A DNA stretch of 64,000 bases from Shigella phage Silverhawkium: the sequence record MK562505. One strand, written 5' to 3'. Positions 4,812 to 39,326 of this stretch are shown here, piece after piece; within the stretch, counting starts at the first letter, position 1; every line of letters starts with the position of its first letter. The position numbers and the translations under genes are program-made. The notes under the pieces are model-generated. The model ran no database searches. It was not told the DNA's origin and saw only the letters and a list, made by a program, of their open reading frames with translations.

Positions 4812-4974
4812 AGGTTAGCATGTTTAGCGCAATTATCCTGTTTGTTTTTGTTGTTTTATCATTATCTTACTTCATAAGTAAACTGATAAGCATAACATAC
4901 AAATCAGCCTTAGCCCTTACTCTGTTATCATTTGTAGTAAATGCAGTAGTCAGAGAATTTTTAATATAAAGTTG

Positions 4975-5002
4975 TTGACATAGAAAATTTGGTGAGTATA
5001 CT
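4975..5002 (+). promoter_or_regulatory. sigma70-like promoter (TTGACA-16-TATACT)
   Basis: Near-consensus -35 and -10 hexamers; lies upstream of repeat block and gene at 5366. Confidence 0.45.
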
Positions 5003-5038
5003 GAGCAGCATAAACCAACGGGTACTCACCAGCATCAC

Positions 5039-5330
5039 TTAAGAGTCTTTGAAAAGGATTTTTAAGTGATATTTGGTATGGTATGGTACGGTTCGGTGGT
5101 GTATGGTTTGGTTCGGTGGTGTAAGGTGTGGTCCGGTAAAGTATGGGTAGTTAGTCTCAGCTACATTAAAATGAGACTTACCTTTTTAAAAGGTCTTGAA
5201 GAGGGTCTTTTAATAAGGTAGGGTAAGGTTAGGTAAGGTATGGTTGGGTTAGGTATGGGTGGATGGTAGTAGCCACGTTAAAAATCTACCAAGTTTCTAA
5301 AGAGTCTTCTGTTGAGGGTTCTTTATAAAC
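5039..5330 (+). repeat. modular non-coding repeat block A: two units, each AAGAGTCTTT-type motif + about 75 nt GG-periodic tract + hairpin
   Basis: GG dinucleotide every about 5 nt at 5074-5156 and 5217-5265; hairpins agtctca/tgagact (5153-5178) and ggtag/ctacc (5265-5290); related to block at 6430-6691. Confidence 0.7.
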
Positions 5331-5348
5331 AACTTAACAATAAACTAA

Positions 5349-5954
<606 letters not shown>

Positions 5955-5956
5955 TT

Positions 5957-6397
5957 ATGAATACAAAAGCATTAGCAGCAAAGTTTAGTTACGGTGATAC
6001 TGTATCACACTCTGAGATGGACACCTTCTTAGGTATTGAGAAGCCAACTTATCAAGGTAACATTGTTAAGTACGAAGATGAAATGAAGGCTTACGCGCTT
6101 ACACGCCTAAATCGACTTGAGAAGTTTATTGAGAAGCTTCTTAAAGAAGAGAAGATTTATCTGGTTGCTTCAATGGGTGTTGGTTATCGCGTGGTTGAAC
6201 CCAAACATCAAGCAACTATTGCAAAACGTAAAATGTCTAGTAAGATTGGTCGTGCTTTAAAGCAAGCCACTCAAGCGATTGAGAATGTGAACACTATGGC
6301 ACTGAGTCATCAAGAACGTTCACGACTGATTGAACAGCAAAACCATTTAGCTGCCATGAAAGCTAACATTAACAAACAACGTAGAAAGCCTTTCTAA
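5957..6397 (+). CDS. hypothetical protein (146 aa), charged/helical
   Basis: ORF immediately following previous gene; Lys/Glu-rich. Confidence 0.45.
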   Translation: MNTKALAAKFSYGDTVSHSEMDTFLGIEKPTYQGNIVKYEDEMKAYALTRLNRLEKFIEKLLKEEKIYLVASMGVGYRVVEPKHQATIAKRKMSSKIGRALKQATQAIENVNTMALSHQERSRLIEQQNHLAAMKANINKQRRKPF

Positions 6398-6408
6398 GTT
6401 GATTAGGT

Positions 6409-6431
6409 AGCCTCTTCGGAGGCTCCTTTTT
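6409..6431 (+). terminator. rho-independent terminator
   Basis: Hairpin AGCCTC-ttcg-GAGGCT followed by TTTTT. Confidence 0.55.
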
Positions 6432-6691
6432 AAAAGGTCTTTAAAAGGGTCTTTTAATAAGGCTCGGCAATGTTCGGCATGGTCTGGTATAGTCCGGTGC
6501 TGTTCGGCGTGGTAAGGTGAGGTATGGGTAGTTAATCGGAGCTACATAAAAATTCGATTACATCACTTAAGAGTCTTTGAAAAGGGTTTTTAAGTGAGGT
6601 TTGGCTCAGTATGGTTATGTGTGGTGATGTGTGGTTCTGTAAGGTCATGTTTGGTATGGAAGGATGGCAGTAGCCTTATAAAAAATCTGCC
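6430..6691 (+). repeat. modular non-coding repeat block B: two units paralogous to block A, in shuffled order
   Basis: GG-periodic tracts 6461-6536 and 6597-6668; hairpins taatcg/cgatta and ggcag/ctgcc show compensatory changes relative to block A. Confidence 0.7.
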
Positions 6692-6710
6692 AAATAAGCT
6701 ATAAAATCTG

Positions 6711-6739
6711 TTGACAAGTCAGGTGTTATAGCTTATTTT
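6711..6739 (+). promoter_or_regulatory. possible sigma70-like promoter (TTGACA-17-TATTTT)
   Basis: Consensus -35, weaker -10; upstream of AGGAGG RBS and ATG 6780. Confidence 0.35.
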
Positions 6740-6779
6740 TATACTCAAATGTATACAAAATTTTATATAGGAGGTAGTT

Positions 6780-7160
6780 ATGAAAAAGTTACTTGTTGGT
6801 GTCATTGCTCTTGGTATGAGTTTTAGTGCAGTGGCTATGAAGATGCCTGAAGCAAACTTTAGTGGTGTTGCTTTAGAATCTTGTAAGATTGTACAGAAAA
6901 TTGCATCAAATGCTGGAGAGTTAACTAAACCGTTGTCTGCTACGACTGTTCAAGAAATGACTGATAAGATGGTTGACTACAACTACCATTTTATGGGAGA
7001 TTACTATGACAGATTAGCAGATGAGATGGTCACTCAGAACGTTGACCTTCTTGATAGTAAAGGTATTGAGACTGTAGAAGATGTGAAAGACAACTTTATG
7101 CGTGAGTCTTTCAAAGGTGTTCAATACTTTATTGAAAATCGTCACTGCATGGGTTTATAA
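6780..7160 (+). CDS. secreted/periplasmic protein (126 aa)
   Basis: N-terminal signal peptide MKKLLVGVIALGMSFSAVA. Confidence 0.5.
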   Translation: MKKLLVGVIALGMSFSAVAMKMPEANFSGVALESCKIVQKIASNAGELTKPLSATTVQEMTDKMVDYNYHFMGDYYDRLADEMVTQNVDLLDSKGIETVEDVKDNFMRESFKGVQYFIENRHCMGL

Positions 7161-7659: not shown

Positions 7660-8019
7660 ATGAAAACTCAAAATGCAATCTTCAATGACAACTTTGCTCT
7701 TGGATTTTATGGTAAACCTACAAGAGTTGAGAAATCGTTTGGTGAAGAACTCTTATCTGTTTTGAAGAGTATGTACAAAGATGGTAAGATAAAACACACT
7801 GAAAAGAAGCGAATCGCTGGATACATGACGATTGGCTCTGCTATCTCAAACATTAAACTTGAAACAACATGTGCTCATGATGTTCGCAACAAGTTTATAA
7901 AGGAACTTTTTGACAACATTGATGGTGTTTCTGTGAAAGCTATCTGGTTAAATGTTGATGGTACTAACTACACAACATTCACTTTCAAAAACGAGGATAT
8001 CAAATGTCTCTTCCCATAA
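7660..8019 (+). CDS. hypothetical protein (119 aa)
   Basis: ORF in compact series. Confidence 0.4.
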   Translation: MKTQNAIFNDNFALGFYGKPTRVEKSFGEELLSVLKSMYKDGKIKHTEKKRIAGYMTIGSAISNIKLETTCAHDVRNKFIKELFDNIDGVSVKAIWLNVDGTNYTTFTFKNEDIKCLFP

Positions 8020-8507
8020 AAATAAACTTAGTCTTTGGATTTAACGTTCTAAAGGGTCAAATACTGAGTCTCCCAAAGTCACCTTATCGCACTGATAAGG
8101 GTTCAGTGAAACGTGCTGCACACTATAACAACAATTTAGGTGCTTTGCAGTCTCTATATGAGTGGCTTGATGAGGATGGAAGACTCAATGAATACCTTCA
8201 TCAACTTAATTTGACATTGGAAGAGGGCAATATGGTTTATAACCACCTTCCACAACTTTACACGCCAATGTCACCAACTCAGCAAAACTGGAATGAACGT
8301 GCTTTAGATGGGTATAGCACAATTACACACTCGAAAAGTCTGGACAGCACACCTGAGTACAGGAAACTCAGAGAGATTATCTACCAAACTATAGGTAAGA
8401 GAGTTTCAAAAGGGCTTGGTTACAAAGAAAAGGTTGACTGGAATACACAAAAGTGTATAAAATTCTACTCATTTGATAATGAGAAGCAGACATTTATAGA
8501 GGTTTAA
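8004..8507 (+). CDS. hypothetical protein (167 aa)
   Basis: ORF in compact series. Confidence 0.4.
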   Translation: MSLPIKINLVFGFNVLKGQILSLPKSPYRTDKGSVKRAAHYNNNLGALQSLYEWLDEDGRLNEYLHQLNLTLEEGNMVYNHLPQLYTPMSPTQQNWNERALDGYSTITHSKSLDSTPEYRKLREIIYQTIGKRVSKGLGYKEKVDWNTQKCIKFYSFDNEKQTFIEV

Positions 8508-8508
8508 C

Positions 8509-9030
8509 ATGCAAAAGATAGGATTCCTGTTGATACAACCAGAAGCTATTCTATTAAAAGGTATCATTTCAAGCCATTTTAAGAACAGAAACCTCCAAGA
8601 AGGTGAAGTTCTGATTGAGACAAACTATGAAGCTGGCACAACTGAGTTTGTTGATGCAGATACTGGAGATTCACTTTGTATTCTCCCTTCACACTTGTTC
8701 ACACCGGAGTTGAGAGATTCTAAATCAATCTCTATGAAGCTGGAGTCAAGTATTGAACTTTATGAGGATACTCAGTATCCAAGAAGCTTCAAATCTATGT
8801 TGAACATCTTCTTAGAGGATATCAAAGAGATTGTGAAACCAGAAGCAGGGAAACATATAGTGACTGCTGAGTGTCCAAATGGGACACACATAACATTTAC
8901 CGGAGATTTTGGTTCAATGGAGTTTCTGAGTTTTGTACCAAAACACTTCGTAGATTTCTTATCAACTGAGTGTGATGATTTAGATTTCATCGTTGATATT
9001 CAACAAATATTTAAGGTAAACAAAAAATGA
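8509..9030 (+). CDS. hypothetical protein (173 aa)
   Basis: ORF in compact series. Confidence 0.4.
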   Translation: MQKIGFLLIQPEAILLKGIISSHFKNRNLQEGEVLIETNYEAGTTEFVDADTGDSLCILPSHLFTPELRDSKSISMKLESSIELYEDTQYPRSFKSMLNIFLEDIKEIVKPEAGKHIVTAECPNGTHITFTGDFGSMEFLSFVPKHFVDFLSTECDDLDFIVDIQQIFKVNKK

Positions 9031-9299
9031 AAATCTTTGAAAAGTTTGAACAATGTTACGCTCAAGATGGTGAGCCTTTGAAATGCCCCACTTGTGGAGG
9101 TTCAAACTTCCAAGGTGAAATTTCAGAGATTGTTGCTGGGAACATAGCTGAAGAGTACACACGCTGTATTGATTGCAATAACATTGTATCTTTTTGGGCG
9201 TATGGTAGCTATCAACCACAACCTAAGCTGGTGTACCATCCGGTAAAAATCATCAAAGATATTGCAAACTGGTTTGTAATTAAGGGGTTCACACAATGA
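9027..9299 (+). CDS. zinc-ribbon protein (90 aa)
   Basis: CPTCGG ... CIDCNN pair of CxxC motifs. Confidence 0.4.
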   Translation: MKIFEKFEQCYAQDGEPLKCPTCGGSNFQGEISEIVAGNIAEEYTRCIDCNNIVSFWAYGSYQPQPKLVYHPVKIIKDIANWFVIKGFTQ

Positions 9300-9841
9300 T
9301 TCGTTTAGTATTTGCAAGTGGTAGAAAAGGTGAGTTTGGTTGCCCTAGTGGGATGCCTTGGGAACGTAACCGTGAAGACATGAAGGAGTTCAGGAAACTT
9401 ACTGAAAACCAACTAGTGGTTATGGGTAATGAGACCTTTAAAAGCCTTGGTAGAAAGCCTTTACCAAACCGTGAGAACATGGTTTTATCAAATAACCTAC
9501 CATACTATGGTATAGATTTTGATAATGAAAACTTTGTCATTGCAAAGGTTGAACCAGACTCTTTTGGTGCATTCCTTAAAAAGATTGATAAGCAAATTGA
9601 TGAAGATGTTTGTGTAATCGGTGGTGCAAATATCTTGAAAGCTGCCTTACCATTTGCTGATGAGGTTTACCATACAGTAATTTATGAGATTACTAAGGAA
9701 CCGACTGTCTATTTACCTGAAGAGGGTTTCTTTGAGTATTTGCATGAGAAAGAGTTATTTGCTAGAATACAATCTAAACCGTTAGCTGACAAATCTGGTG
9801 TAGTTAACTTTTATGTACCACAAGTAAGAGGACGTTTTTGA
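9296..9841 (+). CDS. frd: dihydrofolate reductase
   Basis: DHFR pattern MIRLVFASG...GMPWE...VVMGNETFKSLG...RENMVLS; 181 aa; adjacent to thymidylate synthase. Confidence 0.8.
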   Translation: MIRLVFASGRKGEFGCPSGMPWERNREDMKEFRKLTENQLVVMGNETFKSLGRKPLPNRENMVLSNNLPYYGIDFDNENFVIAKVEPDSFGAFLKKIDKQIDEDVCVIGGANILKAALPFADEVYHTVIYEITKEPTVYLPEEGFFEYLHEKELFARIQSKPLADKSGVVNFYVPQVRGRF

Positions 9842-9842
9842 T

Positions 9843-10742
9843 ATGTCACAAGCAGATGTAAGTTACAAAGGGATACTCAACCATGTTCTTTCTGTTGGAG
9901 AAGAACGTAAAACAAGAACTGGAAAGGTAGTATCTACATTCGCACCACCTGAGTTTCGATTTGATATGCGAAGCGGGTTTCCATTAATAACTTCGAAGCA
10001 AACATTTATGCGTCAAGTTTTAGGTGAAGCTCTATGGTTCCTCAACGGAGAAAACAAACTAGGTCACTTACGTTACAGGACTTGGGGTGAAAACGATGGA
10101 GAGCGTTGGACTATCTGGTCAGATGATTTTGAACGTTGGCTGAAGACAACTTATGCAACTGAAACAGATTGGTTGGAAGATGCAGGTGGAAGAATCTATG
10201 GAGTCCAATGGAGAGCCTACGAAGGTCATGGAGGGGTTGTTGTTGACCAGCTAACCAATCTTGTAGAGAAGATGAAAAACTCTCCTACAGACCGTTATAT
10301 GCTGGTTAATGCGTGGAATGCAGCAGATATTGCAAGCAACTCTATGGCATTAGCACCTTGTCATGTTCTGTTTCAGATTTATATCTCTAACACTGGTGAG
10401 GTTGACTTGAAATGGTATCAACGTTCCTGTGATACATTCTTAGGTTTGCCATTTAATATTGCATCGTATGGGTTTATTTTGGAAGTTTTGTGTAAGATGA
10501 CAGGGTTGACTCCACGATACCTCATTGGTACTTTTGGAGATACTCAAATCTACATGAACCATATGCAACAAGTTTACCAGTTGCTTGCAAATGAGGATTA
10601 CCCAGCACCTAAGTTCGAGATTGGTATCAACCTACACAGCATGGAAGACTTAAAACACTTAACAGCAGATGATTTTATTGGTGGTTTAACAGACTACCGA
10701 CATGCTGGTAAAATTGAAGCTCCACTGTCAGTAGGTAAGTAG
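9843..10742 (+). CDS. td: thymidylate synthase (ThyA-type)
   Basis: Active-site motif LAPCHVLFQIY; 299 aa; uninterrupted ORF. Confidence 0.9.
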   Translation: MSQADVSYKGILNHVLSVGEERKTRTGKVVSTFAPPEFRFDMRSGFPLITSKQTFMRQVLGEALWFLNGENKLGHLRYRTWGENDGERWTIWSDDFERWLKTTYATETDWLEDAGGRIYGVQWRAYEGHGGVVVDQLTNLVEKMKNSPTDRYMLVNAWNAADIASNSMALAPCHVLFQIYISNTGEVDLKWYQRSCDTFLGLPFNIASYGFILEVLCKMTGLTPRYLIGTFGDTQIYMNHMQQVYQLLANEDYPAPKFEIGINLHSMEDLKHLTADDFIGGLTDYRHAGKIEAPLSVGK

Positions 10743-10744
10743 AA

Positions 10745-10775
10745 ACAAAAAAGGCTCCCATAAAAAGGAGCCTTA
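10745..10775. terminator. bidirectional rho-independent terminator between convergent genes
   Basis: Hairpin AGGCTCC-cataaaa-GGAGCCT flanked by A-run and T-rich tract. Confidence 0.55.
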
Positions 10776-10778
10776 TAA

Positions 10779-11153
10779 CTATTTGTTTTTATTGTTCTGT
10801 GTATTTTGCTCAGTAATTGCTTGCAAAGCTGATACAGATTGTGCTAAGTTGTTAACACTGTCAGAGAATTTATCAAGGGTTTTGGTCAACTTAGCGTTTT
10901 CACCCTTTACGTTCTCTAGCTGAACTTTCTGGTTCTCCATCCCTAACTGTAAAAGTTTCATATCAGATTGCAAATCACGAATTGCTGAGTAGTTACCTTT
11001 AGAGTAACCATCCAACTGCTGTAATTTTGTATTGATAGAAACTTCCTGCTTACCGTCAGAGACCTGCATCGTAGTGTACATTCCAATCACACTGAAAATA
11101 CCCACAACAATTGCACCAATGTTATTCTTAAAAGCCTCTTCAATCCACTTCAT
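10779..11153 (-). CDS. membrane-anchored coiled-coil protein (124 aa)
   Basis: N-terminal hydrophobic helix then Q/L-rich heptad-like region; downstream of tail fibres. Confidence 0.4.
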   Translation of the reverse strand: MKWIEEAFKNNIGAIVVGIFSVIGMYTTMQVSDGKQEVSINTKLQQLDGYSKGNYSAIRDLQSDMKLLQLGMENQKVQLENVKGENAKLTKTLDKFSDSVNNLAQSVSALQAITEQNTQNNKNK

Positions 11154-11347
11154 TATTTCTCACCCTTAAAAGCCTTTTCCAAGGTATCTACAAATTCATC
11201 ATCAATAGGTGTATCAGTCTTACTCGCAAGGTATCTTGCAAGCTTGAAGAACACTTTTTCAATCATGTATTCACTAAGAAGAGAAAGTAGAAGCTTCCAG
11301 AAGAATGCCCCAAGATTTTTCATGAGGATTGCTAGGATAGTCGGCAT
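11153..11347 (-). CDS. small membrane protein (64 aa), possible holin
   Basis: Hydrophobic N-terminus, charged C-terminus; holin assignment is positional guess only. Confidence 0.3.
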   Translation of the reverse strand: MPTILAILMKNLGAFFWKLLLSLLSEYMIEKVFFKLARYLASKTDTPIDDEFVDTLEKAFKGEK

Positions 11348-11433
11348 TTAATCACCTTACTTCTTGAGCCAAGATGGTGAGAATACCTACTAAGAAATAT
11401 TAACACCATCTTAACAATTAGTCAACAAGGTAA

Positions 11434-13797
11434 TTAAGCAGTTCTAACCCAAGCCATCAGTTTGATGTAACTGTTTAACACACTGAATGCAGAACCAGAA
11501 CCAGTTGCACCAGTATTACCACTCACTGTATGGTTGTGAGCACCAATACCAACGTTGTGTGCATGGTTACCAGTTGTGTTGGTTACACCTGTCCAAGTTC
11601 TTGATGCGTGGAAATCAACTGGAGCACCATAAGTGAAGTTAGAACCTGTGAAGCCGTGTGAAGCCTGACTACCACCCATAACAAACGCACCACTCGCAGT
11701 GTAGAATGCACCGTTATCACTTCTGAACCAACCAAACACACCAGAGATTTCCATGTTACCCCTATCATGAGCGTGGTTACCTGCTGCCGTTGTTCCTTTA
11801 GTACCATAGTCGAACGTTGAAGTTGTACCAGAGAAGCTATGAGTGTGTGAAGGAATATGCCCTACAGACAGTGCTACAGAGTCTGCACCACCAACCTGCT
11901 TGATATCTGAACCGTTTGCTGCACCAATTCTGATAGTTCTTCCTGCACCCTCTGACAAATAAGTCCAAGTAGTGCCTGGGAAAGCAGTATTTGGGTTTGT
12001 GTTTGCTGCAAAGAATGTTACAATCCCAATTGGATAAATCTTCTTAAGGTCTGTTGAATCTGTTACAGCAGCAGCAATCTTCTGGTCAGTTTCAGCTTTA
12101 GTGTATGCACCAATATCTGAAGGTGTAGGTTTGTTCTTCTCTGTATAGAATTGGGTGAATGGTTCTTCAAAACCAAGACCATCTCTTGAAGACCTATACC
12201 ACACTCCACCATTTTTATAGTTGAATTTCAACTGTGCAGATGGTGTTGAGCTTGCCCCTTGATATAGCTGTAGGACAAGGTTAGTAGAGCCTCCAGAAGA
12301 AGTTGTTACATTGTAAAGTCCTGTTTTAGCATTCCAAGCAATACCATCTCCACCTCCAGCTTCAGTACCTGTACCAGTTGCACTAGCCAGCATGAATCTT
12401 GCATTTGCAGAGCTTTGAGTAAAGTATCTTGAATCTAGGTTAGACCAGTCAGAAGGTTGCACCTGTCCAGAAATTGCCAGAGTGGTATTAAGTTCTGCTG
12501 CTGAACCAATGCTAAGACCTTTACCTGTCTTGTAGTTATACAGGTTTAAGATATCACTGGCATCACCGTTACCAATATACCACTTGCTGGTTCCATCAGC
12601 AGCCTTACCTCTAATGAACAATGACGTGGCAGTTTTTGCTTGCAACGCAAGGGCTTCACCATCAGAGTTGATAATCTGCTGTACAGAGAATGTGTTAACA
12701 GCATTAGTTCTTGCTAGGACGTTTGTCAGAGAACTTGGAACATATCTTGAATCAAAGTTAGCAAAGTCACTTGGTTTTACTTGACCAGTTACATTAATTG
12801 CTTTATTGAAAGAAAACTCAGTAGCAATCTTAAAAGCAACGTTAGTCATCTGGTTAACCAGAGCAATCTCAGACTGAGTACCATCTGCTTGACCAACATA
12901 CCAAGTCCCTGTATTAGCACTATTGTACCCACGGATAAACAATGCAGCATTCTCTGTAGCTGCTCTTAAGTTTAGGGCATTGCTATCTGCAATAACGTAA
13001 GTCTTACCATTAAAATTGTTAACACCTACAAAGTTGTTATTTGCAGACAGTCTTGCAAATCTCTGGTCAGCAGCAGTTTGAGTAAAGTATCTTGCATCTA
13101 GGTTAGACCAGTTGTTAGGCTGGACTTGACCATTAATTTCCAAGTTCTTATCAAAACTAGCAGAGTTTGTACCAAGAGTCAATGTTGCACCCTTGCTATT
13201 AACTAAGGTTACATCAGAGCTTGAAGTCAGGTTACCAACTGTGAATCTCAAAGCATTTGAAGAATCTCTTGCTTCAATAAATGCACCACCATCAGGTAGG
13301 ATACTTTTCAGAGTCAGACCAACACCATTGATATTAATAATTTGTCTTGCTAAGAAAGTGTTTTCAGTTGCTTTCATAGCATATCTTGCATCATTCTCTG
13401 CATTTGTTCTCATGCCAAGTTCATTAGGAGTTGGTTTGTTCAAAGTGTGATAAACATTTGCAGACCTTGTAGCATCATTAACAGTAAGTCTCAAACCATT
13501 TGCATTAATTCTAAAAGTTTTTGCAACATCACCAAGAATAACCTCAGATGCACCTGTTGGGTCAAGTAAATCATTCCCACCATAAGTTAACTTCACAATA
13601 CCAAGATTACCTGTCATAGTCCCACCAGTTAATTGCAGGAATCTTTGAAGGTTAAAAGAGGCTAGGAAGTTTGCATAGGTCATTTTACGGTCTTCGTCAC
13701 CTAACATGTCAGACCTTTTAATAATTCTTAGGTGAAGCAAATCTTCTGAGCGAACTGTATCAATACTGTTTAGTTCACTTAGCTTATATTCAGCCAT
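11434..13797 (-). CDS. long tail fibre protein (787 aa)
   Basis: Repetitive Gly/Asn/Thr-rich; C-terminal His-x-His repeats (HTHS, HAHD, HAHN, HNHT) and shared C-terminus ...WVRTA with next gene. Confidence 0.7.
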   Translation of the reverse strand: MAEYKLSELNSIDTVRSEDLLHLRIIKRSDMLGDEDRKMTYANFLASFNLQRFLQLTGGTMTGNLGIVKLTYGGNDLLDPTGASEVILGDVAKTFRINANGLRLTVNDATRSANVYHTLNKPTPNELGMRTNAENDARYAMKATENTFLARQIININGVGLTLKSILPDGGAFIEARDSSNALRFTVGNLTSSSDVTLVNSKGATLTLGTNSASFDKNLEINGQVQPNNWSNLDARYFTQTAADQRFARLSANNNFVGVNNFNGKTYVIADSNALNLRAATENAALFIRGYNSANTGTWYVGQADGTQSEIALVNQMTNVAFKIATEFSFNKAINVTGQVKPSDFANFDSRYVPSSLTNVLARTNAVNTFSVQQIINSDGEALALQAKTATSLFIRGKAADGTSKWYIGNGDASDILNLYNYKTGKGLSIGSAAELNTTLAISGQVQPSDWSNLDSRYFTQSSANARFMLASATGTGTEAGGGDGIAWNAKTGLYNVTTSSGGSTNLVLQLYQGASSTPSAQLKFNYKNGGVWYRSSRDGLGFEEPFTQFYTEKNKPTPSDIGAYTKAETDQKIAAAVTDSTDLKKIYPIGIVTFFAANTNPNTAFPGTTWTYLSEGAGRTIRIGAANGSDIKQVGGADSVALSVGHIPSHTHSFSGTTSTFDYGTKGTTAAGNHAHDRGNMEISGVFGWFRSDNGAFYTASGAFVMGGSQASHGFTGSNFTYGAPVDFHASRTWTGVTNTTGNHAHNVGIGAHNHTVSGNTGATGSGSAFSVLNSYIKLMAWVRTA

Positions 13798-34724: not shown

Positions 34725-34800
34725 TGGAGTATCGGAAGGGACTCGAACCCTCATAAACCTGTTTTGCAGACAGGAACATATCCATTTCTGTCACCGATAC
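34725..34800 (-). tRNA. tRNA-Cys (anticodon GCA)
   Basis: Manual fold: 7-bp acceptor GTATCGG/CCGATAC, anticodon loop CTGCAAA, T-loop TTCGAGT, CCA encoded. Confidence 0.65.
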
Positions 34801-34806
34801 ATAATT

Positions 34807-34899
34807 TGGAGGAAGATACCAGACTTGAACTGGTACGCCGATTTCTCGGTTACTGGCAGTTTAGCAAACTGCTCCCTTACCTGTTAGGGTTAATCTTCC
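34807..34899 (-). tRNA. tRNA-Ser (anticodon GCT), long variable arm
   Basis: Acceptor GGAAGAT/ATCTTCC, anticodon loop TTGCTAA, long variable arm, T-loop TTCAAGT. Confidence 0.65.
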
Positions 34900-34901
34900 A
34901 G

Positions 34902-35699
34902 TTATTTGTTAAGTGCATCTTTCATTTCTGGTGTAGAGATAGAGTCAATAACACCAGTCTTACAAGCATCATCAAACCAGTCTGGTAAGACATTTGCAAG
35001 AAAACCGTTAATGTTTGTCTTAAGATACTCAGCCATCAATGCTACTTCATCAGCAATCATCTGTGTGACTTCTGAAGCGTATGCAGTAATCTTTGACATA
35101 CCTTCATTAATCGCTGTAACAGCTTGTGAGGCTAAATCTTCGATTGTATCAAGCCCTTGGTCAATTGCATCTTGTAAGTCGCTTAGAACGCCGTTTACAG
35201 CGTCTATGGAGGTGTTTATAATCTCCATAGCTTTGTTACCATACTCAGTAGCAACTCCCATAATCCCACTGAATGGCGTACAACCAACTTGTTCACCTGC
35301 TGCTCCCATTACATTAGAGTAGCCTTTTGCCACCTGCATTCGTTGAGAGAACTCATCTACAGATTTCTGACCATACTCAGTCAGTGTAGTGGTTGTTGAA
35401 GTTGTACTGCCAAGACTTGTTGTGAAGCTACTTAAGAGTGCTGCTGTTAATCCAGCCGCAATAAGCTTATCTTGCACAGTCGGGTCTGTTACGGAACTAA
35501 TAGAGTTTACTAATGACTGAGAGGCAGCAATTGTACCACCAAGGACTGCTGCACCAGTAATAAGAGGGTTTGAGAAACCATTACCAGTTTTAAGGAGATT
35601 AAAAATCTCTTTACTTTGTTCTGTCATCTCTTTCATTATGCACCTATAAAGTTGGTAGCCCATCGGGATTTGAACCCTGTTCTCATGTTTTTCAGACAA
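34902..35699 (-). CDS. hypothetical Ala/Ser/Thr-rich protein embedded in tRNA island (265 aa)
   Basis: Long ORF between tRNA genes; low-complexity A/S/T-rich N-terminal half. Confidence 0.4.
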   Translation of the reverse strand: MSEKHENRVQIPMGYQLYRCIMKEMTEQSKEIFNLLKTGNGFSNPLITGAAVLGGTIAASQSLVNSISSVTDPTVQDKLIAAGLTAALLSSFTTSLGSTTSTTTTLTEYGQKSVDEFSQRMQVAKGYSNVMGAAGEQVGCTPFSGIMGVATEYGNKAMEIINTSIDAVNGVLSDLQDAIDQGLDTIEDLASQAVTAINEGMSKITAYASEVTQMIADEVALMAEYLKTNINGFLANVLPDWFDDACKTGVIDSISTPEMKDALNK

Positions 35700-35729
35700 G
35701 CGCTTTAACCATATAAGCTAATTGAGCTA
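35655..35729 (-). tRNA. probable tRNA, isotype uncertain (possibly Phe, anticodon GAA)
   Basis: T-loop TTCAAAT with 3-bp GGG/CCC stem, D-loop ATATGGTTA, loop CTGAAAA; acceptor register ambiguous. Confidence 0.35.
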
Positions 35730-35735
35730 TTAAAT

Positions 35736-35812
35736 TGGGGTGACCTACGGGAATCGAACCCGTATAGACCATGTTCACAGCATGGGTCATTATCCATTTA
35801 TGATAAGGCCAC
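35736..35812 (-). tRNA. tRNA-His (anticodon GTG)
   Basis: Acceptor GTGGCCT/AGGTCAC, anticodon loop CTGTGAA, T-arm ACGGG-TTCGATT-CCCGT, CCA encoded. Confidence 0.7.
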
Positions 35813-35843
35813 ATTTAAGGACTCTCGTAAGAACCCTTAGAAG

Positions 35844-35919
35844 TGGCAGCAGTATAAGGATTTGAACCTTAATCTTTCAGCTTCAGAGGCTGGAGCATTG
35901 CCAGTTATGCTATACTGCT
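35844..35919 (-). tRNA. tRNA-Gln (anticodon CTG)
   Basis: Acceptor AGCAGTA/TACTGCT, D-arm GCAT/ATGC, anticodon loop CTCTGAA. Confidence 0.65.
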
Positions 35920-35925
35920 AATATT

Positions 35926-36004
35926 TGGTACTCCATATCGGATTCGAACCGATACATAACACAGATTTTAAATCTGGCCTCTCTGCCAATTGGAGTAATG
36001 GAGC
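35926..36004 (-). tRNA. tRNA with Leu-type anticodon TAA but short variable arm
   Basis: Acceptor pairs, A14/G18G19/A21 D-loop, anticodon stem CAGA/TCTG with loop TTTAAAA, T-arm ATCGG-TTCGAAT-CCGAT, A73. Confidence 0.5.
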
Positions 36005-36006
36005 CT

Positions 36007-36082
36007 TGGCGGGGGATGATGGAATTGAACCATCTTCTTCGATTTCAAAGACCGAGGTTTTAACCTTGTAAACTAATCCCCT
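36007..36082 (-). tRNA. tRNA-Gln (anticodon TTG)
   Basis: D-arm GTTT/AAAC, anticodon loop CTTTGAA, T-arm GATGG-TTCAATT-CCATC; A1-C72 mismatch. Confidence 0.65.
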
Positions 36083-36090
36083 ATTAAATT

Positions 36091-36167
36091 TGGTGCAGAA
36101 TAGAGGATTCGAACCCCTAACAAACAACTTCGTAGATTGCTGTTCTATCCATTTGAACTAATTCTGC
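36091..36167 (-). tRNA. tRNA-Arg (anticodon ACG)
   Basis: Acceptor GCAGAAT/ATTCTGC perfect, D-arm GTTC/GAAC, anticodon loop CTACGAA. Confidence 0.7.
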
Positions 36168-36168
36168 A

Positions 36169-36411
36169 TTATCCGATAAGGACACCATAAAGTTTTAACT
36201 CTTCATTAGTGTCTCTTCTGCTTAAGACTGACTCTCTAAAATCTTTAGCAATATTCTTTCGAGATTCCTGTCTAGCTCTCTTCTTATCTCTTCTGAGAAA
36301 GCGTTTACGATGGTCTGTACGCCATTTGTAATAATCTTCTTCACCATCATGTGCTGCACAGCAGCCACAACTTGCAATTTCAACTTTACCGTGTCTACCA
36401 TAAGGTTTCAT
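36169..36411 (-). CDS. small basic Cys-cluster protein (80 aa) embedded in tRNA island
   Basis: ORF with SCGCCAAHD cysteine cluster and Arg/Lys-rich C-terminus; abuts tRNA-Arg. Confidence 0.35.
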   Translation of the reverse strand: MKPYGRHGKVEIASCGCCAAHDGEEDYYKWRTDHRKRFLRRDKKRARQESRKNIAKDFRESVLSRRDTNEELKLYGVLIG

Positions 36412-36427
36412 AGGAATCTCCTAAAAT

Positions 36428-36505
36428 TGGTACTCCAAGACGGATTCGAACCGTCACTAATACAAGGTTTGAGCTTGCATCCTCTACCAATTGGGATACT
36501 GGAGC
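36428..36505 (-). tRNA. tRNA with Leu-type anticodon CAA but short variable arm
   Basis: Anticodon stem GCAAG/CTTGT with loop CTCAAAC, T-arm GACGG-TTCGAAT-CCGTC, A73, CCA encoded. Confidence 0.5.
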
Positions 36506-36506
36506 A

Positions 36507-36581
36507 TGGTACTCGCTGAAGAACTTGAATCTTCTTCACCAACTTGTAAGGATGGGGTTTTACCGTATAAACTAAGCGAGC
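36507..36581 (-). tRNA. tRNA-Val (anticodon TAC)
   Basis: Acceptor GCTCGCT/AGCGAGT, D-arm GTTT/AAAC, loop CTTACAA, T-arm GAAGA-TTCAAGT-TCTTC. Confidence 0.6.
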
Positions 36582-36676
36582 TTTGAAGAGGTCTGAAGCT
36601 GTGCCGCTAACTCAACTCCGTGGAATTTGTTACGGTCTTCAGTTGACTCAAGCGGTCTTTCACTTGACCTCAAAAT

Positions 36677-36752
36677 TGGTGCTCCCACAAGGATTCGAAC
36701 CCTGATAAGTTGCTTACAAGGCAACCGTAATAGCCAATTATACGATAAGAGC
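36677..36752 (-). tRNA. tRNA-Thr (anticodon TGT)
   Basis: Anticodon arm GTTGC-CTTGTAA-GCAAC perfect; T-loop TTCGAAT. Confidence 0.7.
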
Positions 36753-36758
36753 ATTATT

Positions 36759-36833
36759 TGGAGCATCCAGAGGGAATCGAACCCTCAACCTCAGTTTGGA
36801 AGACTGTAATTTTCCCGTTTAAACTATGGATGC
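36759..36833 (-). tRNA. tRNA-Gly (anticodon TCC)
   Basis: Acceptor GCATCCA/TGGATGC perfect, loop CTTCCAA, T-arm GAGGG-TTCGATT-CCCTC. Confidence 0.7.
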
Positions 36834-36839
36834 ACTAAT

Positions 36840-36914
36840 TGGTGGAGTCACCGAGAATTGAACTCGGTTCCCAAGTTTGCAAAACTCGAATTTTAACCAT
36901 ATAAACTATGACCC
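36840..36914 (-). tRNA. tRNA-Ala (anticodon TGC)
   Basis: G3-U70 wobble pair in acceptor stem (Ala identity element), loop TTTGCAA, T-arm CCGAG-TTCAATT-CTCGG. Confidence 0.7.
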
Positions 36915-36921
36915 CATTGTT

Positions 36922-36997
36922 TGGTACAGGTGGAGGGAATTGAACCCATCGTCTTACTGATTAAGAGTCAGCCGCATAACCATTTTGCTACACCTGC
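36922..36997 (-). tRNA. tRNA-Lys (anticodon CTT)
   Basis: Acceptor GCAGGTG/CACCTGT, loop CTCTTAA; T-stem only 3 GC pairs. Confidence 0.55.
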
Positions 36998-37004
36998 ATT
37001 AATT

Positions 37005-37081
37005 TGGTACACCTAGAGAGATTCGAACTCACACTGAGCAGATTCTAAGTCTGCTGCCTCTTCCAATTGGGCTATAGGTGC
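37005..37081 (-). tRNA. tRNA with Leu-type anticodon TAG but short variable arm
   Basis: Anticodon arm GCAGA-CTTAGAA-TCTGC perfect, 5-nt variable loop, T-loop TTCGAAT, A73. Confidence 0.5.
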
Positions 37082-37331
37082 ATTAAATCTTTGTAGAGAA
37101 CTGCTAAGACGCCAAAGCAACAATGGTATCAAATGCCTTAACAATTCTCTAAAAAGACCTATTGGCCTTTGCATAGTCTTGCTTAATCCGGTGACTAGAA
37201 CCTTTGGAGAGCTTGATACTATCTCTTCTCCGTGACACCTACTAGGTGCTTTCTCAACATCGTGTACGCCAATACACGGAGGGAAACCTAACGCAACATT
37301 CGAACGGAGCGCGGCTTTAAATCTTATTAGG

Positions 37332-37419
37332 CGGTAAGTAAAGGAGTCGAACCCTCACCGTATCTCTACAGTGGCAACTGTTTTCAAGACAGTTTGGCTA
37401 CCATTAGCCGCTACCTACC
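37332..37419 (-). tRNA. tRNA-Ser (anticodon TGA), long variable arm, CCA not encoded
   Basis: Anticodon arm ACTGT-CTTGAAA-ACAGT perfect, about 20-nt variable arm, T-loop TTCGACT. Confidence 0.65.
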
Positions 37420-37432
37420 CCTAATAAGACTT

Positions 37433-37515
37433 TGGCATGGGACGTAGGATTCGAACCCATTTGAAACGGTTTTGGAGGCCGTCGCACATGCCTTAGTGTC
37501 TTAACATCGTCCCAT
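37433..37515 (-). tRNA. probable tRNA-Trp (anticodon CCA) with atypical extra nucleotides 5' of the D-arm
   Basis: Perfect 7-bp acceptor ATGGGAC/GTCCCAT, anticodon loop CTCCAAA, T-loop TTCGAAT; 83 nt. Confidence 0.4.
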
Positions 37516-37680
37516 ACTATATTTCGAAGCTTACCCTGTTATCTCAACACTGTCAAGCTTCTTCTCAGATTATTTACATGTTCTGGAAAACATGAGATAC
37601 AGACCACCTCCTTATGAGATTGACTCTTTCAAGTCAATGCGGAGACCCATAAAGGTCGTCGTAGTAATCTGCTAACTATT

Positions 37681-37756
37681 TGGCACTCCGTATAGGACTC
37701 GAACCTATATATGAACTGTTTAGAAGACAGTTGCCTATCCTTTAGACTAACGGAGC
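37681..37756 (-). tRNA. tRNA-Arg (anticodon TCT)
   Basis: Anticodon arm ACTGT-CTTCTAA-ACAGT perfect; T-arm ATAGG-TTCGAGT-CCTAT perfect. Confidence 0.7.
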
Positions 37757-38003
37757 ATTATCTTTAAAGGCTCTCTTAGAAAACCCTTAAAGATGCCCAC
37801 TTTATTAATCATACCGTGGGCTAGTACGCCAAATTCTTTAACAGGGAGTTGGAATACCCTGCTGGTGTTTAGCCTATTAAGCTACTGCCAGAAAAACATT
37901 ATCGTTTGCATTTATTTTTAAGTTTTTAAAATAGACGCTACGCTAACGAAAACTAAGGTTATCTTAAAGTGGTCACATCTGAATGTCAACAACTTTATGA
38001 AAT

Positions 38004-38078
38004 TGGTTGTAGGTGAGGGTATCGAACCCTCTTCTAACGGTTATCAGCCGTTTGCATTACCATTTATGCTAACCCACA
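38004..38078 (-). tRNA. tRNA-Ile (anticodon GAT)
   Basis: D-arm GCAT/ATGC, anticodon arm AACGG-CTGATAA-CCGTT, T-arm GAGGG-TTCGATA-CCCTC. Confidence 0.7.
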
Positions 38079-38080
38079 AT

Positions 38081-38157
38081 TGGAGGTTCAGGTGGGAATC
38101 GAACCCACATTCATAGGGCTTATGAAACCCTTGCATTACCTTATCTGCGACTGAACC
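38081..38157 (-). tRNA. tRNA-Met (anticodon CAT)
   Basis: Acceptor GGTTCAG/CTGAACC perfect, loop TTCATAA with G-C-rich anticodon stem. Confidence 0.65.
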
Positions 38158-38161
38158 ATAT

Positions 38162-38237
38162 TGGTAGAAGTGGAGGGATTCGAACCCGTCGCCTGTCAGA
38201 TTAAAAGTCTGCCGCATCACCATTCTGCTACACTTCC
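38162..38237 (-). tRNA. tRNA-Lys (anticodon TTT)
   Basis: Loop CTTTTAA, T-loop TTCGAAT with 3-bp GGG/CCC stem as in tRNA-Lys(CTT). Confidence 0.6.
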
Positions 38238-38424
38238 ATTAAATCATCTTTGCAGTAACCTACGCAAACCTTGCTAAAGGGTTTGTAGAGTCATCTCTTA
38301 GTAAGCTAATCTAGAATCATGCTCAAGAGACTCTTCGGCACTCATGGGACGACTGGTTAGCTCCATAAGTCACTGCAAAGGTGATTACCAGACCGTTGTT
38401 ATCTTAAGTGCTTCCATTACACCA

Positions 38425-38525
38425 ACACGCCGTAACGTGTGAAGGAATCGAACCTTCGCCTTTTCTTTACCAGAGAAATAGATTGTTTAACTTGCTGTAA
38501 ACGGTCTTCTGTAAATTGTTGGAAC
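38425..38525 (-). ncRNA. orphan tRNA-like element (T-arm only) of unknown function
   Basis: Perfect T-arm GAAGG-TTCGATT-CCTTC at 38441-38457 but no matching acceptor, D or anticodon arms; overlaps repeated 24-nt motif. Confidence 0.3.
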
Positions 38526-38659
38526 CAGACCAAGTTTTAAATTTTTCAAAATTAAATTGGCTTGAAATTTTAAGTGACTTGCTGTATTTGGTCTTCTGCT
38601 CCTTTAAAGAATACTCGCAAGAACTCTTTAAGGGAGGGGCTAAATAGCCCTCTCAAAAT

Positions 38660-38736
38660 TGGCGGCTACGATGAGACTTGAACTCACATCATCTCCCGTG
38701 ACAGGGGAGTATTTTCTCCAGTTAAACTACATAGCC
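38660..38736 (-). tRNA. tRNA-Asp (anticodon GTC)
   Basis: Anticodon arm CTCCC-CTGTCAC-GGGAG perfect; T-loop TTCAAGT. Confidence 0.7.
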
Positions 38737-38741
38737 TTTAT

Positions 38742-38829
38742 TGGTGTGCCGTGTAGGAGTCGAACCTACCGAGTCTCAATGACAAGGGATTTACAGTCCC
38801 CACCGCTACCATCTACGGGATAACGACAC
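38742..38829 (-). tRNA. tRNA-Tyr (anticodon GTA), long variable arm
   Basis: 3-bp D-stem, loop CTGTAAA, long variable arm, T-arm GTAGG-TTCGACT-CCTAC. Confidence 0.65.
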
Positions 38830-38838
38830 ATTTAAATT

Positions 38839-38915
38839 TGGCGGTTAGTCAGGGATTCGAACCCTGTACCATTCGGTTAACAGCCGACCGCACATGCCTT
38901 ATGTGCTTCCTAACC
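38839..38915 (-). tRNA. tRNA-Asn (anticodon GTT)
   Basis: D-arm GCAC-ATAAGGCAT-GTGC, loop CTGTTAA, T-arm CAGGG-TTCGAAT-CCCTG. Confidence 0.65.
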
Positions 38916-38998
38916 ATGTTAGTATTACCAGACCGTATCTTTTCATTTTTTCCGATAAAAAATTTTAAGTGTTTGCTGTAAACGGCCTTCTGTAAATT

Positions 38999-39074
38999 TG
39001 GAGGCGGGTGTAGGAGTCGAACCTACCGATACCATGCTAATGAGACATGTGAGACGCCCTTTCTCTATACCCGC
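38999..39074 (-). tRNA. tRNA-Met or Ile2 (anticodon CAT), second copy, with 1:72 mismatch
   Basis: Anticodon arm CATGT-CTCATTA-GCATG; T1-C72 mismatch reminiscent of initiator-type acceptor end. Confidence 0.5.
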
Positions 39075-39162
39075 AATTCTTAATGACCAGACCAAATCTT
39101 TTTTGGATTTCTATGCGCGAAATTGAAAAGTTTGTTTGCTGTAATTGGTCTTCTGTCAAAAC

Positions 39163-39240
39163 TGGCATTCCCGAAGGGACTTGAACCCTCAAACCACACC
39201 TTGAAAGGGTGTTGACTTTACCTAATTTGTCTACGGGAAT
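39163..39240 (-). tRNA. tRNA-Glu (anticodon TTC)
   Basis: Acceptor ATTCCCG/CGGGAAT perfect, anticodon arm ACACC-CTTTCAA-GGTGT perfect. Confidence 0.7.
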
Positions 39241-39246
39241 ATAATT

Positions 39247-39326
39247 TGGTCTCCGTTGAAGGATTTGAACCTTCGACCCCTTGCTCCCAAAGCAAGTGCT
39301 GCTAAACCAAACTGAGCTAAACGGAG
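39247..39326 (-). tRNA. tRNA-Pro (anticodon TGG)
   Basis: Acceptor CTCCGTT/AACGGAG perfect, anticodon arm CTTGC-TTTGGGA-GCAAG, T-arm GAAGG-TTCAAAT-CCTTC. Confidence 0.7.

Follow-up and report, generated by a model that had tools for sequence, protein, structure and literature searches.

Gene pair and identification of its products

The DNA analysed here, called the window, is a stretch of 64,000 nucleotides from Shigella phage Silverhawkium (MK562505). Two plus-strand genes in it, frd and td (thyA), are separated by a single nucleotide and encode products assigned to dihydrofolate reductase (DHFR) and thymidylate synthase (TS), respectively. The features of the locus are displayed in Table 1.

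The frd product matched the DHFR_1 model (PF00186) over residues 1-142 with 90.2 bits (GA 25), leaving the last ~40 residues outside the Pfam alignment, and it belongs to phrog_316 (DHFR; E = 9e-52, residues 1-175). None of the NCBIfam equivalog models reached its cut-off with this protein, for which only the general Pfam model passed. The td product matched Thymidylat_synt (PF00303) along practically the whole model (246.4 bits, GA 24.3, model positions 2-266 of 266), passed the TIGR03284 equivalog model (213.5 bits, cut-off 108.35), and belongs to phrog_160 (TS; E = 5e-94). Among PDB entries, Td matched E. coli ThyA (~1e-50) and T4 Td (1tis, 7e-47), and the matches of the DHFR include T4 Frd (1juv, E = 1e-11); the top solved-structure matches of both proteins are genuine TS and DHFR enzymes. 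By sequence similarity, the pair is identified far beyond chance as a phage DHFR followed by a ThyA-type TS, as the sequence-only reading of this DNA had claimed, and the corresponding enzymatic activities are predicted for both products.

Table 1. Features of the frd-td locus, with positions in the window.
Feature	Position	Strand	Details	Evidence
frd, dihydrofolate reductase CDS	9296..9841	+	ATG start; 181 aa (546 nt)	ORF listing
td/thyA, thymidylate synthase CDS	9843..10742	+	ATG start; 299 aa (900 nt), uninterrupted	ORF listing
Small-domain segment of Td	10071..10190	+	aa 77-116; exceeds its E. coli ThyA counterpart by ~20 residues	Alignments
Codon of catalytic nucleophile Cys173	10359..10361	+	E. 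coli C146; APCH motif, aa 171-174	Alignment, coordinate mapping
CAACG, identical to the I-TevI cleavage motif	10419..10423	+	Gln-Arg codons of YQRS	Coordinate mapping
Counterpart of the T4 td group I intron insertion site, unoccupied	10445..10446	+	Gly201/Leu202, FLG/LPFNIASY	Alignment
C-terminal APLSVGK of Td	10719..10739	+	GK are 2 residues beyond the canonical TS end	Pfam/TIGR models stop at residue 297 of 299; alignment
GC-rich hairpin, probable bidirectional intrinsic terminator	10751..10774	.	Between td (+) and holin-like gene (-)	Terminator scan, RNA fold

Active-site residues

In the alignment with E. coli ThyA, Td keeps R21, E58, W80, Y94, R126, C146, and H147, as well as Q165, R166, S167, D169, N177, and Y209. 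The residue that discriminates the base (E. coli N177) is Asn in Td, within LPFNIASY (aa 202-209), and Asn at this position specifies dUMP over dCMP. Concerning the DHFR, the equivalents of E. coli G15, M20, P21, W22, D27, F31, T46, R57, I94, G95, G96, and T113 are kept, so that the catalytic carboxylate (D27) is present; its departures, R44 to Asn and Y100 to Leu, also appear in other phage DHFRs.

Td presents some peculiarities. Three of the four arginines of the TS phosphate-binding set (R21, R126', R127', R166), which is typical of the family and not strictly defining, are found in it. R127 is replaced by Tyr in all Ounavirinae sampled, and H207 by Gln in the Td of Mooglevirus and Felixounavirus. 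Both changes, R127Y and H207Q, affect dUMP-contacting residues; the arginine equivalent to R127 is reportedly dispensable, according to mutagenesis of R179 in L. casei. Furthermore, the C-terminus, whose end is normally invariant and which closes the active site in canonical TS, is two residues longer in Td and one residue longer in Kolesnikvirus Td. An end in register with the ...A-P-V-A-I/V carboxylate is usual in the family without defining it. Because of R127Y, H207Q, and the two additional C-terminal residues, the kinetics of Td could differ from those of canonical ThyA.

Operon setting

The start codon of frd overlaps the stop codon of the upstream ORF (9027-9299) as ATGA, and a Shine-Dalgarno-like AAGGGG lies ahead of it at 9282-9287. 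The Shine-Dalgarno sequence of td (AAGAGGA, 9826-9832) is located within the 3' end of frd. Both genes are the last two of a rightward operon carrying DNA polymerase, ligase, and small ORFs, which is an early operon, and they are followed by a convergent holin-like gene on the minus strand and tail genes. The hairpin between td and the holin-like gene has a 9-bp stem and a minus-strand T-run, and its predicted RNA fold (-19.6 kcal/mol, z = -5.3) was matched in stability by 0 of 200 shuffles; it probably ends the operon as a bidirectional intrinsic terminator. Sigma-70-like promoter matches in the region were not above the shuffle frequency, and no promoter is claimed. The packing of the genes suggests the boundaries of the transcription unit, within which frd and td would be co-transcribed and translationally coupled.

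Continuity of td

Over its full length, Td can be aligned with TS proteins from intron-less genes. The exon junctions of T4 td, located at nt 549 and 1566, were transferred to the window by alignment, and the T4 site, which follows codon 183, falls between residues 201 and 202 of Td, where the frame is unbroken. This comparison with intron-bearing and intron-less td genes is the check that the sequence-only reading had proposed for its description of a continuous, 299-aa td free of a group I intron, and the description holds. When Td was used as the tblastn query, the matches in intron-bearing T4-type phages stopped at query residue 201.

The covariance evidence depends on the threshold. An Rfam scan at the gathering threshold was rejected as proof that no intron is present: the T4 positive control gave nothing, and such a scan is not evidence alone because the T4 introns are missed at that level. 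The permissive mode, which was validated on T4 (40.3 bits for the td intron and 35.7 bits for the nrdB intron), gave no match to RF00028 (group I intron) at E <= 10 in positions 8800-11400 or at E <= 0.05 in the whole window. As a methodological caution, ORF-bearing T4 introns escape the Rfam gathering threshold, and the lack of an Rfam hit is not by itself a reason to call a phage gene intron-free.

An intein or a homing-endonuclease insertion in td was also considered and rejected, as no such domain was found with Pfam and phrog; Pfam detected no Hint, LAGLIDADG, HNH, or GIY-YIG domain in Td. Moreover, the ORF listing contains no extra ORF within frd or td or between them, and an intron-encoded GIY-YIG endonuclease of the I-TevI kind is absent. 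The length of td is also 900 nt in the Shigella phage Sf13 and in the Felixounavirus SP116. The td gene of the window is uninterrupted, with no intron, intein, or endonuclease insertion. An apparent exception, the Shigella phage SFPB, whose annotation reads "thymidylate synthase (x2)", was rejected as an interrupted td since the two CDS span 899 nt, which corresponds to an intact gene; the split is a frameshift or an annotation artefact, not an intron.

The I-TevI motif near the unoccupied site

The CAACG of the window keeps the T4 register, with the counterpart of the intron insertion site 23/25 nt downstream of it; both this spacing and the I-TevI cleavage motif have been described previously (PMC5009752, PMC2988022). 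Over the 38-bp I-TevI target, the window is identical at 26 of 38 positions. No insertion in td was found among the ~30 full-length Ounavirinae matches listed, out of about 257 colinear records. The fact that the motif is kept and yet no insertion is seen hints at a barrier to intron homing across families, for example through weak exon homology or through the 26/38 binding site. An unoccupied td with an intact CAACG could be a natural substrate for exploring the host range of td-intron homing. It should be noted that Ounavirinae and T-even phages share hosts.

Distribution of the pair

The window belongs to a Felix O1-like Shigella/E. coli phage of the Ounavirinae (Mooglevirus), and at the DNA level all of its best matches come from this subfamily (Mooglevirus and Felixounavirus), the nearest relative being Shigella phage Sf13 (MF158040), with which it is colinear. 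About 257 Ounavirinae records carry colinear frd-td genes, one piece each, and the pair is kept in all the genera of the subfamily that were sampled, including Kolesnikvirus (45% identity in Td); in Kolesnikvirus M7, small genes in convergent orientation and a tail gene come after it. Among the phage records with a td match (n = 3996), most show one place only. Intron-less td is the normal state in Ounavirinae. The arrangement itself is ordinary and was already described in 2010 for Felix O1, whose genome paper (Whichard et al. 2010, PMC3185647) lists DHFR and TS with no insertions in td, in agreement with the low novelty that had been assigned to the observation.

Proposed role and alternative explanations

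The pair most probably constitutes the phage's own thymidylate-cycle module, placed in an Ounavirinae operon and with an intron-less td, as is normal in the subfamily; we give this reading, which rests on sequence comparisons, a probability of about 0.93. Td, as a ThyA-type enzyme, would convert dUMP to dTMP with 5,10-methylene-tetrahydrofolate, releasing dihydrofolate, and the DHFR encoded just upstream would return dihydrofolate to tetrahydrofolate with NADPH. TS is genetically linked to DHFR because the TS reaction is the only one that oxidises folate to dihydrofolate. Together, both enzymes would raise the dTTP supply for the replication of an AT-rich (~39% GC) virulent phage genome. They may be produced from a common transcript as the last cistrons of the rightward operon, with translation coupled through the ATGA overlap before frd, the 1-nt gap, and the Shine-Dalgarno sequence within frd, and the hairpin would close this operon and serve the convergent holin/tail-fibre unit as well.

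Other explanations were weighed against this module. The td product could be a pyrimidine hydroxymethylase of the TS fold, acting on dCMP or dUMP and feeding DNA base modification instead of dTMP synthesis. Virulent phages commonly encode such enzymes, for which a TS annotation is frequent (RefSeq gives even T4 gene 42 the name "thymidylate synthase"), and R127Y, H207Q, and the C-terminal extension of Td are unusual. However, Td passes the TS equivalog model and has the Asn of a TS in LPFNIASY where gp42 has Asp (RNDYA), and its comparison with the T4 dCMP hydroxymethylase was not significant (BLASTP E = 0.12, versus ~1e-47 with T4 Td), so that a dCMP hydroxymethylase identity was rejected by direct comparison with gp42. 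In addition, translation of Td appears to be coupled to that of a DHFR, an enzyme required only when folate is oxidised, as happens in the TS reaction, and base modification was looked for in the Felix O1 genome paper (PMC3185647) and none was reported. This makes a hydroxymethylase very improbable. The unusual residues, along with the small-domain insert and the longer C-terminus, can also be read as the mark of an Ounavirinae subclade of divergent ThyA enzymes, whose catalysis might not resemble that of canonical TS, for example in active-site closure, inhibitor sensitivity, or even product, accompanied by the hinted barrier to intron homing across families; taken as a whole, this proposal from the alignments is unlikely, if somewhat less so than a hydroxymethylase.

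A recent transfer of the pair from a T-even phage, or its sharing with one, which would make it literally a T-even lineage marker, is just as improbable as the hydroxymethylase. The order frd-then-td and the tight spacing are indeed the same in T4, and a stretch of 160 nt of td around the active site is ~70% similar to T-even td, but this is the only T-even DNA similarity of the window, and it is restricted to the most constrained codons, from APCH to LPFNIASY. Td is only ~36% identical to T4 Td, which is itself closer to E. coli ThyA (49%) and to T5-like Td (54%), and the DHFR shares ~29% identity with T4 Frd. The flanks are wholly unlike those of T4: nrdA-nrdB follow the pair in T4, whereas the terminator and convergent lysis/tail genes follow it in the window, and gene 32, upstream in T4, is absent upstream of the window pair. 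The persistence of the pair across the sampled Ounavirinae genera, as far as Kolesnikvirus, points to a long residence in the subfamily. Finally, a degenerate or ORF-less intron or a small mobile insertion could be hidden in td, for instance in the small-domain segment, as Td exceeds E. coli ThyA by 35 aa and has an insert at aa 77-116, and the Rfam gathering threshold is blind to T4 phage introns. Nevertheless, the ~60 extra nucleotides are too few for an intron, and the segment is in frame, stop-free, and conserved at the protein level in Felixounavirus, with a comparable, shorter insert at the same place in T4 and T5-like Td. The negative T4-validated scan, the lack of Hint, LAGLIDADG, HNH, and GIY-YIG domains according to Pfam, and the td length shared with Sf13 and SP116 also speak against it, and the chance of such a hidden element is close to nil.

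Regarding the thymidylate-cycle module, frd-td belongs to the usual nucleotide-metabolism equipment of virulent enterobacterial phages and can serve as a conserved marker for Ounavirinae synteny, and its presence need not signal T-even ancestry.

Comparison with known systems

The closest counterpart is Sf13, where gp118 (DHFR) and gp119 (TS) have the same lengths (546 and 900 nt), junctions, neighbours, and annotation as in the window, with 98.8% identity in frd-td DNA, 100% in Td, and 99.4% in DHFR amino acids. Over the rest of the window the identity with Sf13 is 74-96% by segment, and the window lacks the Sf13 HNH gene gp104 and carries ~1.9 kb extra at 4816-6874; it is a different phage. 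In the Felixounavirus SP116 (ORF97/ORF96), the order, the 1-nt TGAnATG junction, the gene lengths, and the downstream convergent small genes and tail fibre are those of the window, with amino acid identities between Felixounavirus and the window of 80% for Td and 57% for DHFR.

The T5-like Tequintavirus JLBYU43 presents nrdA-nrdB-frd-td, with a tight pair and an uninterrupted td; the pair is linked to nrdAB there and not in the window. T5-like Td is 44% identical to that of the window, near the 45% of Kolesnikvirus and approximately the closest outside Mooglevirus and Felixounavirus among the aligned homologues, and the DHFR is 20% identical; unlike window Td, T5-like Td keeps R127, H207, and a canonical C-terminus. 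E. coli ThyA and FolA are 37% and 31% identical to the window proteins, with the same folds and catalytic residues, and both rank among the best matches of known structure; their genes, thyA and folA, are unlinked.

In T4, frd and td share 4 nt, whereas a gap of 1 nt separates those of the window, both arrangements being tight and DHFR-first. T4 td is interrupted at nt 549 by a group I intron of 1017 nt that encodes I-TevI and that the window lacks, while the CAACG motif and the FLG/LPFNIASY codons are found at the homologous position in both and the enzymes are predicted to have the same roles. The sequence-only reading had stated that the pair mirrors the T-even arrangement and that an intron-less td marks a lineage. 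The gene order and the tight coupling bear out the former, but T5-like phages and Kolesnikvirus also share the pair, and thus it is not a specifically T-even arrangement; unlike in T4 and T5, it does not lie beside nrdAB in the window. The window itself, a Mooglevirus nearest to Sf13, is not related to the T-evens at the genome level. The latter statement does not stand, since among T-evens T2 has a single, intron-less td of 861 nt, with an additional ORF separating it from frd, and most of the td-bearing records show the gene in one place; an intron-less td is thus the default and not a lineage marker.

Phage identity and gene content

Megablast of window positions 8000-12000 retrieved only Felix O1-like myoviruses (Ounavirinae). 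The best match was Shigella phage Sf13 (Mooglevirus, MF158040; 94.7% identity); further genomes of Mooglevirus and Felixounavirus came next, with 77-81%. The whole window is colinear with Sf13 by local BLAST, at 74-96% identity depending on the segment. Regarding these matches, the colinearity and the divergence, the window belongs to a distinct Mooglevirus-like phage and not to a T-even phage.

The sequence-only reading had placed a dihydrofolate reductase (DHFR) gene, frd, and a thymidylate synthase (TS) gene, td, at 9296-10742, and both are found in the ORF list with exactly these coordinates and above the family cut-offs. The frd product matches Pfam DHFR_1 (90.2 bits; gathering score 25) and PHROG 316, dihydrofolate reductase (E = 9e-52). 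The td product, Td, matches the entire Pfam Thymidylat_synt model (246.4 bits; gathering score 24.3), PHROG 160, thymidylate synthase (E = 5e-94), and the NCBIfam equivalog TIGR03284 (213.5; cut-off 108.35). Among solved structures, Td matches two genuine enzymes, E. coli ThyA (~1e-50) and T4 Td (1tis, 7e-47), and DHFR matches many bacterial DHFRs as well as T4 Frd (1juv, 1e-11). Hence, the pair is real, far beyond chance. Its DNA is 98.8% identical to that of Sf13, with 100% (Td) and 99.4% (DHFR) identity at the protein level.

Divergence from Sf13 is mosaic, with ~96% identity in the DNA polymerase region, an average of 87% in the tail-fibre to tape-measure block and only 74-79% at 43.6-60 kb; frd-td is far better conserved than its surroundings. 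Between the DNA ligase gene and the next shared gene, ~1.9 kb (4816-6874) has no counterpart in Sf13. Moreover, in Sf13 the DNA polymerase gene is immediately followed by gp104 (528 nt, record 68091-68618), a putative HNH homing endonuclease gene. It is missing at the same junction of the window (~2427-2431), and so looks like a free-standing homing endonuclease that is polymorphic for presence and absence. On the minus strand, 24-25 tRNA genes are densely clustered at 34728-39326, as in Felix O1-like phages; one further tRNA (35739-35812) appeared only in a permissive scan, and tRNA-Sec, permuted-tmRNA and Plastid-ycf2 matches were sub-threshold and overlapped tRNAs.

Features located in the window and in the T4 control locus
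Feature	Position	Strand	Remarks
frd, 181 aa	9296..9841	+	ORF list
td, 299 aa	9843..10742	+	ORF list; adjoins frd
GC-rich hairpin, 9-bp stem	10751-10774		T-run on minus strand; just past td end (10742)
ORF in Sf13-absent segment, 200 aa	5352-5954	+	phrog_4652, unknown function, no Pfam match
ORF in Sf13-absent segment, 146 aa	5957-6397	+	phrog_5926, unknown function, no Pfam match
T4 td intron (NC_000866 136000-147000)	7596-7826 (locus)		RF00028, E-value mode
T4 nrdB intron (NC_000866 136000-147000)	2509-2749 (locus)		RF00028, E-value mode

Continuity of td and the group I intron site

The td gene is uninterrupted. To locate the intron site, T4 td was rebuilt from the RefSeq record: exon 1 (549 nt) ends in ...TTCTTGGGT and is followed by an intron of 1017 nt containing I-TevI, after which exon 2 begins with CTACCGTTTAAT. 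Alignment of the proteins places the T4 exon junction FLG/LPFNIASY at window residues 201/202 (nt 10445/10446), within a continuous frame. This mapping is independently supported by tblastn of Td against 50,697 phage records, since the matches in T4-type intron-bearing phages stop at query residue 201 and resume at a second place in the record, whereas intron-less genes match straight through. In two T4-like phages, JSE (NC_012740 140765-141979) and HP3.2 (OP978391 47975-49146), the match is in two pieces spanning ~1.2 kb, ~300 nt beyond an intact gene, so that these genes may carry a small insertion or an intron of another kind.

At Rfam gathering thresholds, only tRNAs were reported in the whole window. 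This negative is uninformative because the same scan of the T4 locus missed the introns of both td and nrdB: in permissive E-value mode they score 40.3 bits (E = 9e-8) and 35.7 bits (E = 2e-6), respectively, with the group I intron model RF00028, whose gathering score is 50. Gathering-threshold scans are thus unreliable negatives for ORF-bearing phage introns. In the permissive mode, validated on T4, RF00028 matched nothing in 8800-11400 up to E = 10 and nothing in the whole window up to E = 0.05. Together with the unbroken frame, this upholds the earlier description of a continuous ORF of 299 aa without a group I intron.

Compared with E. coli ThyA, Td is longer at three places only: ~20 residues are added in frame in the small domain (segment aa 77-116), two close to the active-site loop and two at the C-terminus. 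Felixounavirus keeps them all as protein. The small-domain segment is not a group I intron, as 60 nt is far too short, and a Pfam search of Td for Hint, LAGLIDADG, HNH and GIY-YIG domains found none.

The I-TevI cleavage motif CAACG, in which C1 and G5 are critical (PMC5009752), is present at 10419-10423. I-TevI nicks 23/25 nt upstream of its insertion site (PMC2988022), and the window motif sets nicks at this same distance from the homologous site; it is in register because it encodes the invariant Gln-Arg of YQRS. The window equals T4 at 26 of the 38 positions of the I-TevI target and at 52/77 nt over a longer stretch. Judging from these matches, the site is an unoccupied and perhaps cleavable target, where homing would be hampered by the weak flanking homology.

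Catalytic residues and function of Td

ThyA moves the one-carbon unit of 5,10-methylene-THF to dUMP and reduces it, which yields dTMP and dihydrofolate; DHFR then uses NADPH to regenerate tetrahydrofolate. The phage copies would raise the dTTP supply for an AT-rich genome; the GC content of the window is ~0.38-0.41. Td keeps all the residues regarded as essential (E. coli numbering: R21, E58, W80, Y94, R126, C146, H147, Q165, R166, S167, D169, N177 and Y209), and DHFR keeps D27, W22, F31, R57, G95-G96 and T113.

Related phage enzymes hydroxymethylate nucleotides instead, and Td was weighed against both options. A dCMP hydroxymethylase is excluded by the BLASTP comparison with T4 gp42 (E = 0.12) and by the base-specifying residue, which is Asn and not Asp. 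A dUMP hydroxymethylase, which nothing supports, is unlikely, and the genetic coupling to DHFR argues for a true TS, as only the TS reaction oxidises folate.

Some peculiarities of Td are not in conflict with this family membership. R127, one of four phosphate-binding arginines, is Tyr in all Ounavirinae Td sampled; the equivalent arginine of the L. casei enzyme, R179, is reported to be dispensable. H207 is Gln in Moogle- and Felixounavirus, and the Td sampled end 1-2 residues past the canonical C-terminus (APLSVG or APLSVGK). These changes may affect kinetics.

Operon structure and conservation in Ounavirinae

An upstream 90-aa ORF and frd overlap by their stop and start codons (ATGA, 9296-9299), and AAGGGG lies 8 nt ahead of the frd start. 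The frd stop is TGA at 9839-9841, and a strong Shine-Dalgarno sequence for td, AAGAGGA (9826-9832), lies inside the 3' end of frd, with td starting at 9843. This packing points to translational coupling of the two genes and to their being the final cistrons of a rightward DNA polymerase - ligase - small-ORF operon. Past td, the hairpin with its flanks (-19.6 kcal/mol, z = -5.3, 0/200 shuffles equally stable) separates it from genes that run towards it on the minus strand, namely a small ORF and the genes of a holin homologue and a 787-aa tail fibre, and is probably a bidirectional terminator. No promoter is claimed, because promoter-like matches (sigma-70) were not enriched over shuffles in the frd-td region. 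The upstream ORF (9027-9299, +; phrog_2993, unknown function) carries a CxxC...CxxC pattern with a weak, sub-threshold DnaJ zinc-finger match, and is conserved ahead of frd in both Moogle- and Felixounavirus.

Sensitive blastn with the 1447-nt pair retrieved 257 records with a single place covering at least 80% of the query, and all 30 full-length matches listed are in one piece, with record span equal to query span (1431-1447 nt). The TGAnATG junction is the same in Felixounavirus SP116. Even in Erwinia phage M7 of the distant genus Kolesnikvirus, the order is DNA ligase, small ORF, DHFR, TS, and then small genes in convergent orientation with a tail gene. Hence, the pair is an old and stable feature of the subfamily. 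In Shigella phage SFPB, the annotation splits td (OQ031072, 3482-4380) into two TS genes of 300 and 444 nt, and DHFR is shortened too. An insertion was rejected, as the fragments span 899 nt, the normal length, leaving a frameshift or an annotation artefact; sequencing frameshifts are the most likely cause.

Comparison with T-even and other phages

The low novelty assigned to the pair is confirmed: the genome paper on Felix O1 (PMC3185647) lists DHFR and TS among the nucleotide-metabolism genes and describes td as free of insertions, and both genes are annotated in Sf13 (gp118 and gp119), so that frd-td is nothing unusual in a Felix O1-like phage and has been described before.

The likeness to T-even phages holds in gene order and coupling but not in sequence. 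In T4, frd precedes td and overlaps it by 4 nt, and nrdA.2, nrdA.1, nrdA, mobE and nrdB come after the pair. However, Td of the window shares 36% identity with T4 Td and 37% with E. coli ThyA, whereas T4 Td is 49% identical to ThyA and 54% to T5-like Td; between the window DHFR and T4 Frd the identity is 29%, and DNA similarity to T-even td is confined to ~160 nt encoding APCH to LPFNIASY. Furthermore, the arrangement is not T-even-specific, since a T5-like phage also has a tight frd-td pair, downstream of nrdA-nrdB. A Bacillus herellevirus has the order TS, dNMP kinase, DHFR. In Sf13, and by colinearity in the window, the nrd and dNMP kinase genes lie apart from frd-td, upstream of the gene for DNA polymerase and on the other strand.

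Phage T2 (AP018813), a genuine T-even, has a 348-nt hypothetical ORF (986-1333) between frd and td, so the T4 overlap is not universal among T-evens. Its td is a single 861-nt gene without an intron, and an uninterrupted td therefore does not serve as the lineage marker proposed earlier. The sequence-only reading is thus partly supported: right about the genes, the missing intron and the low novelty, and wrong in its T-even and lineage-marker framing. By default, td lacks the intron, a mobile addition that occurs sporadically.
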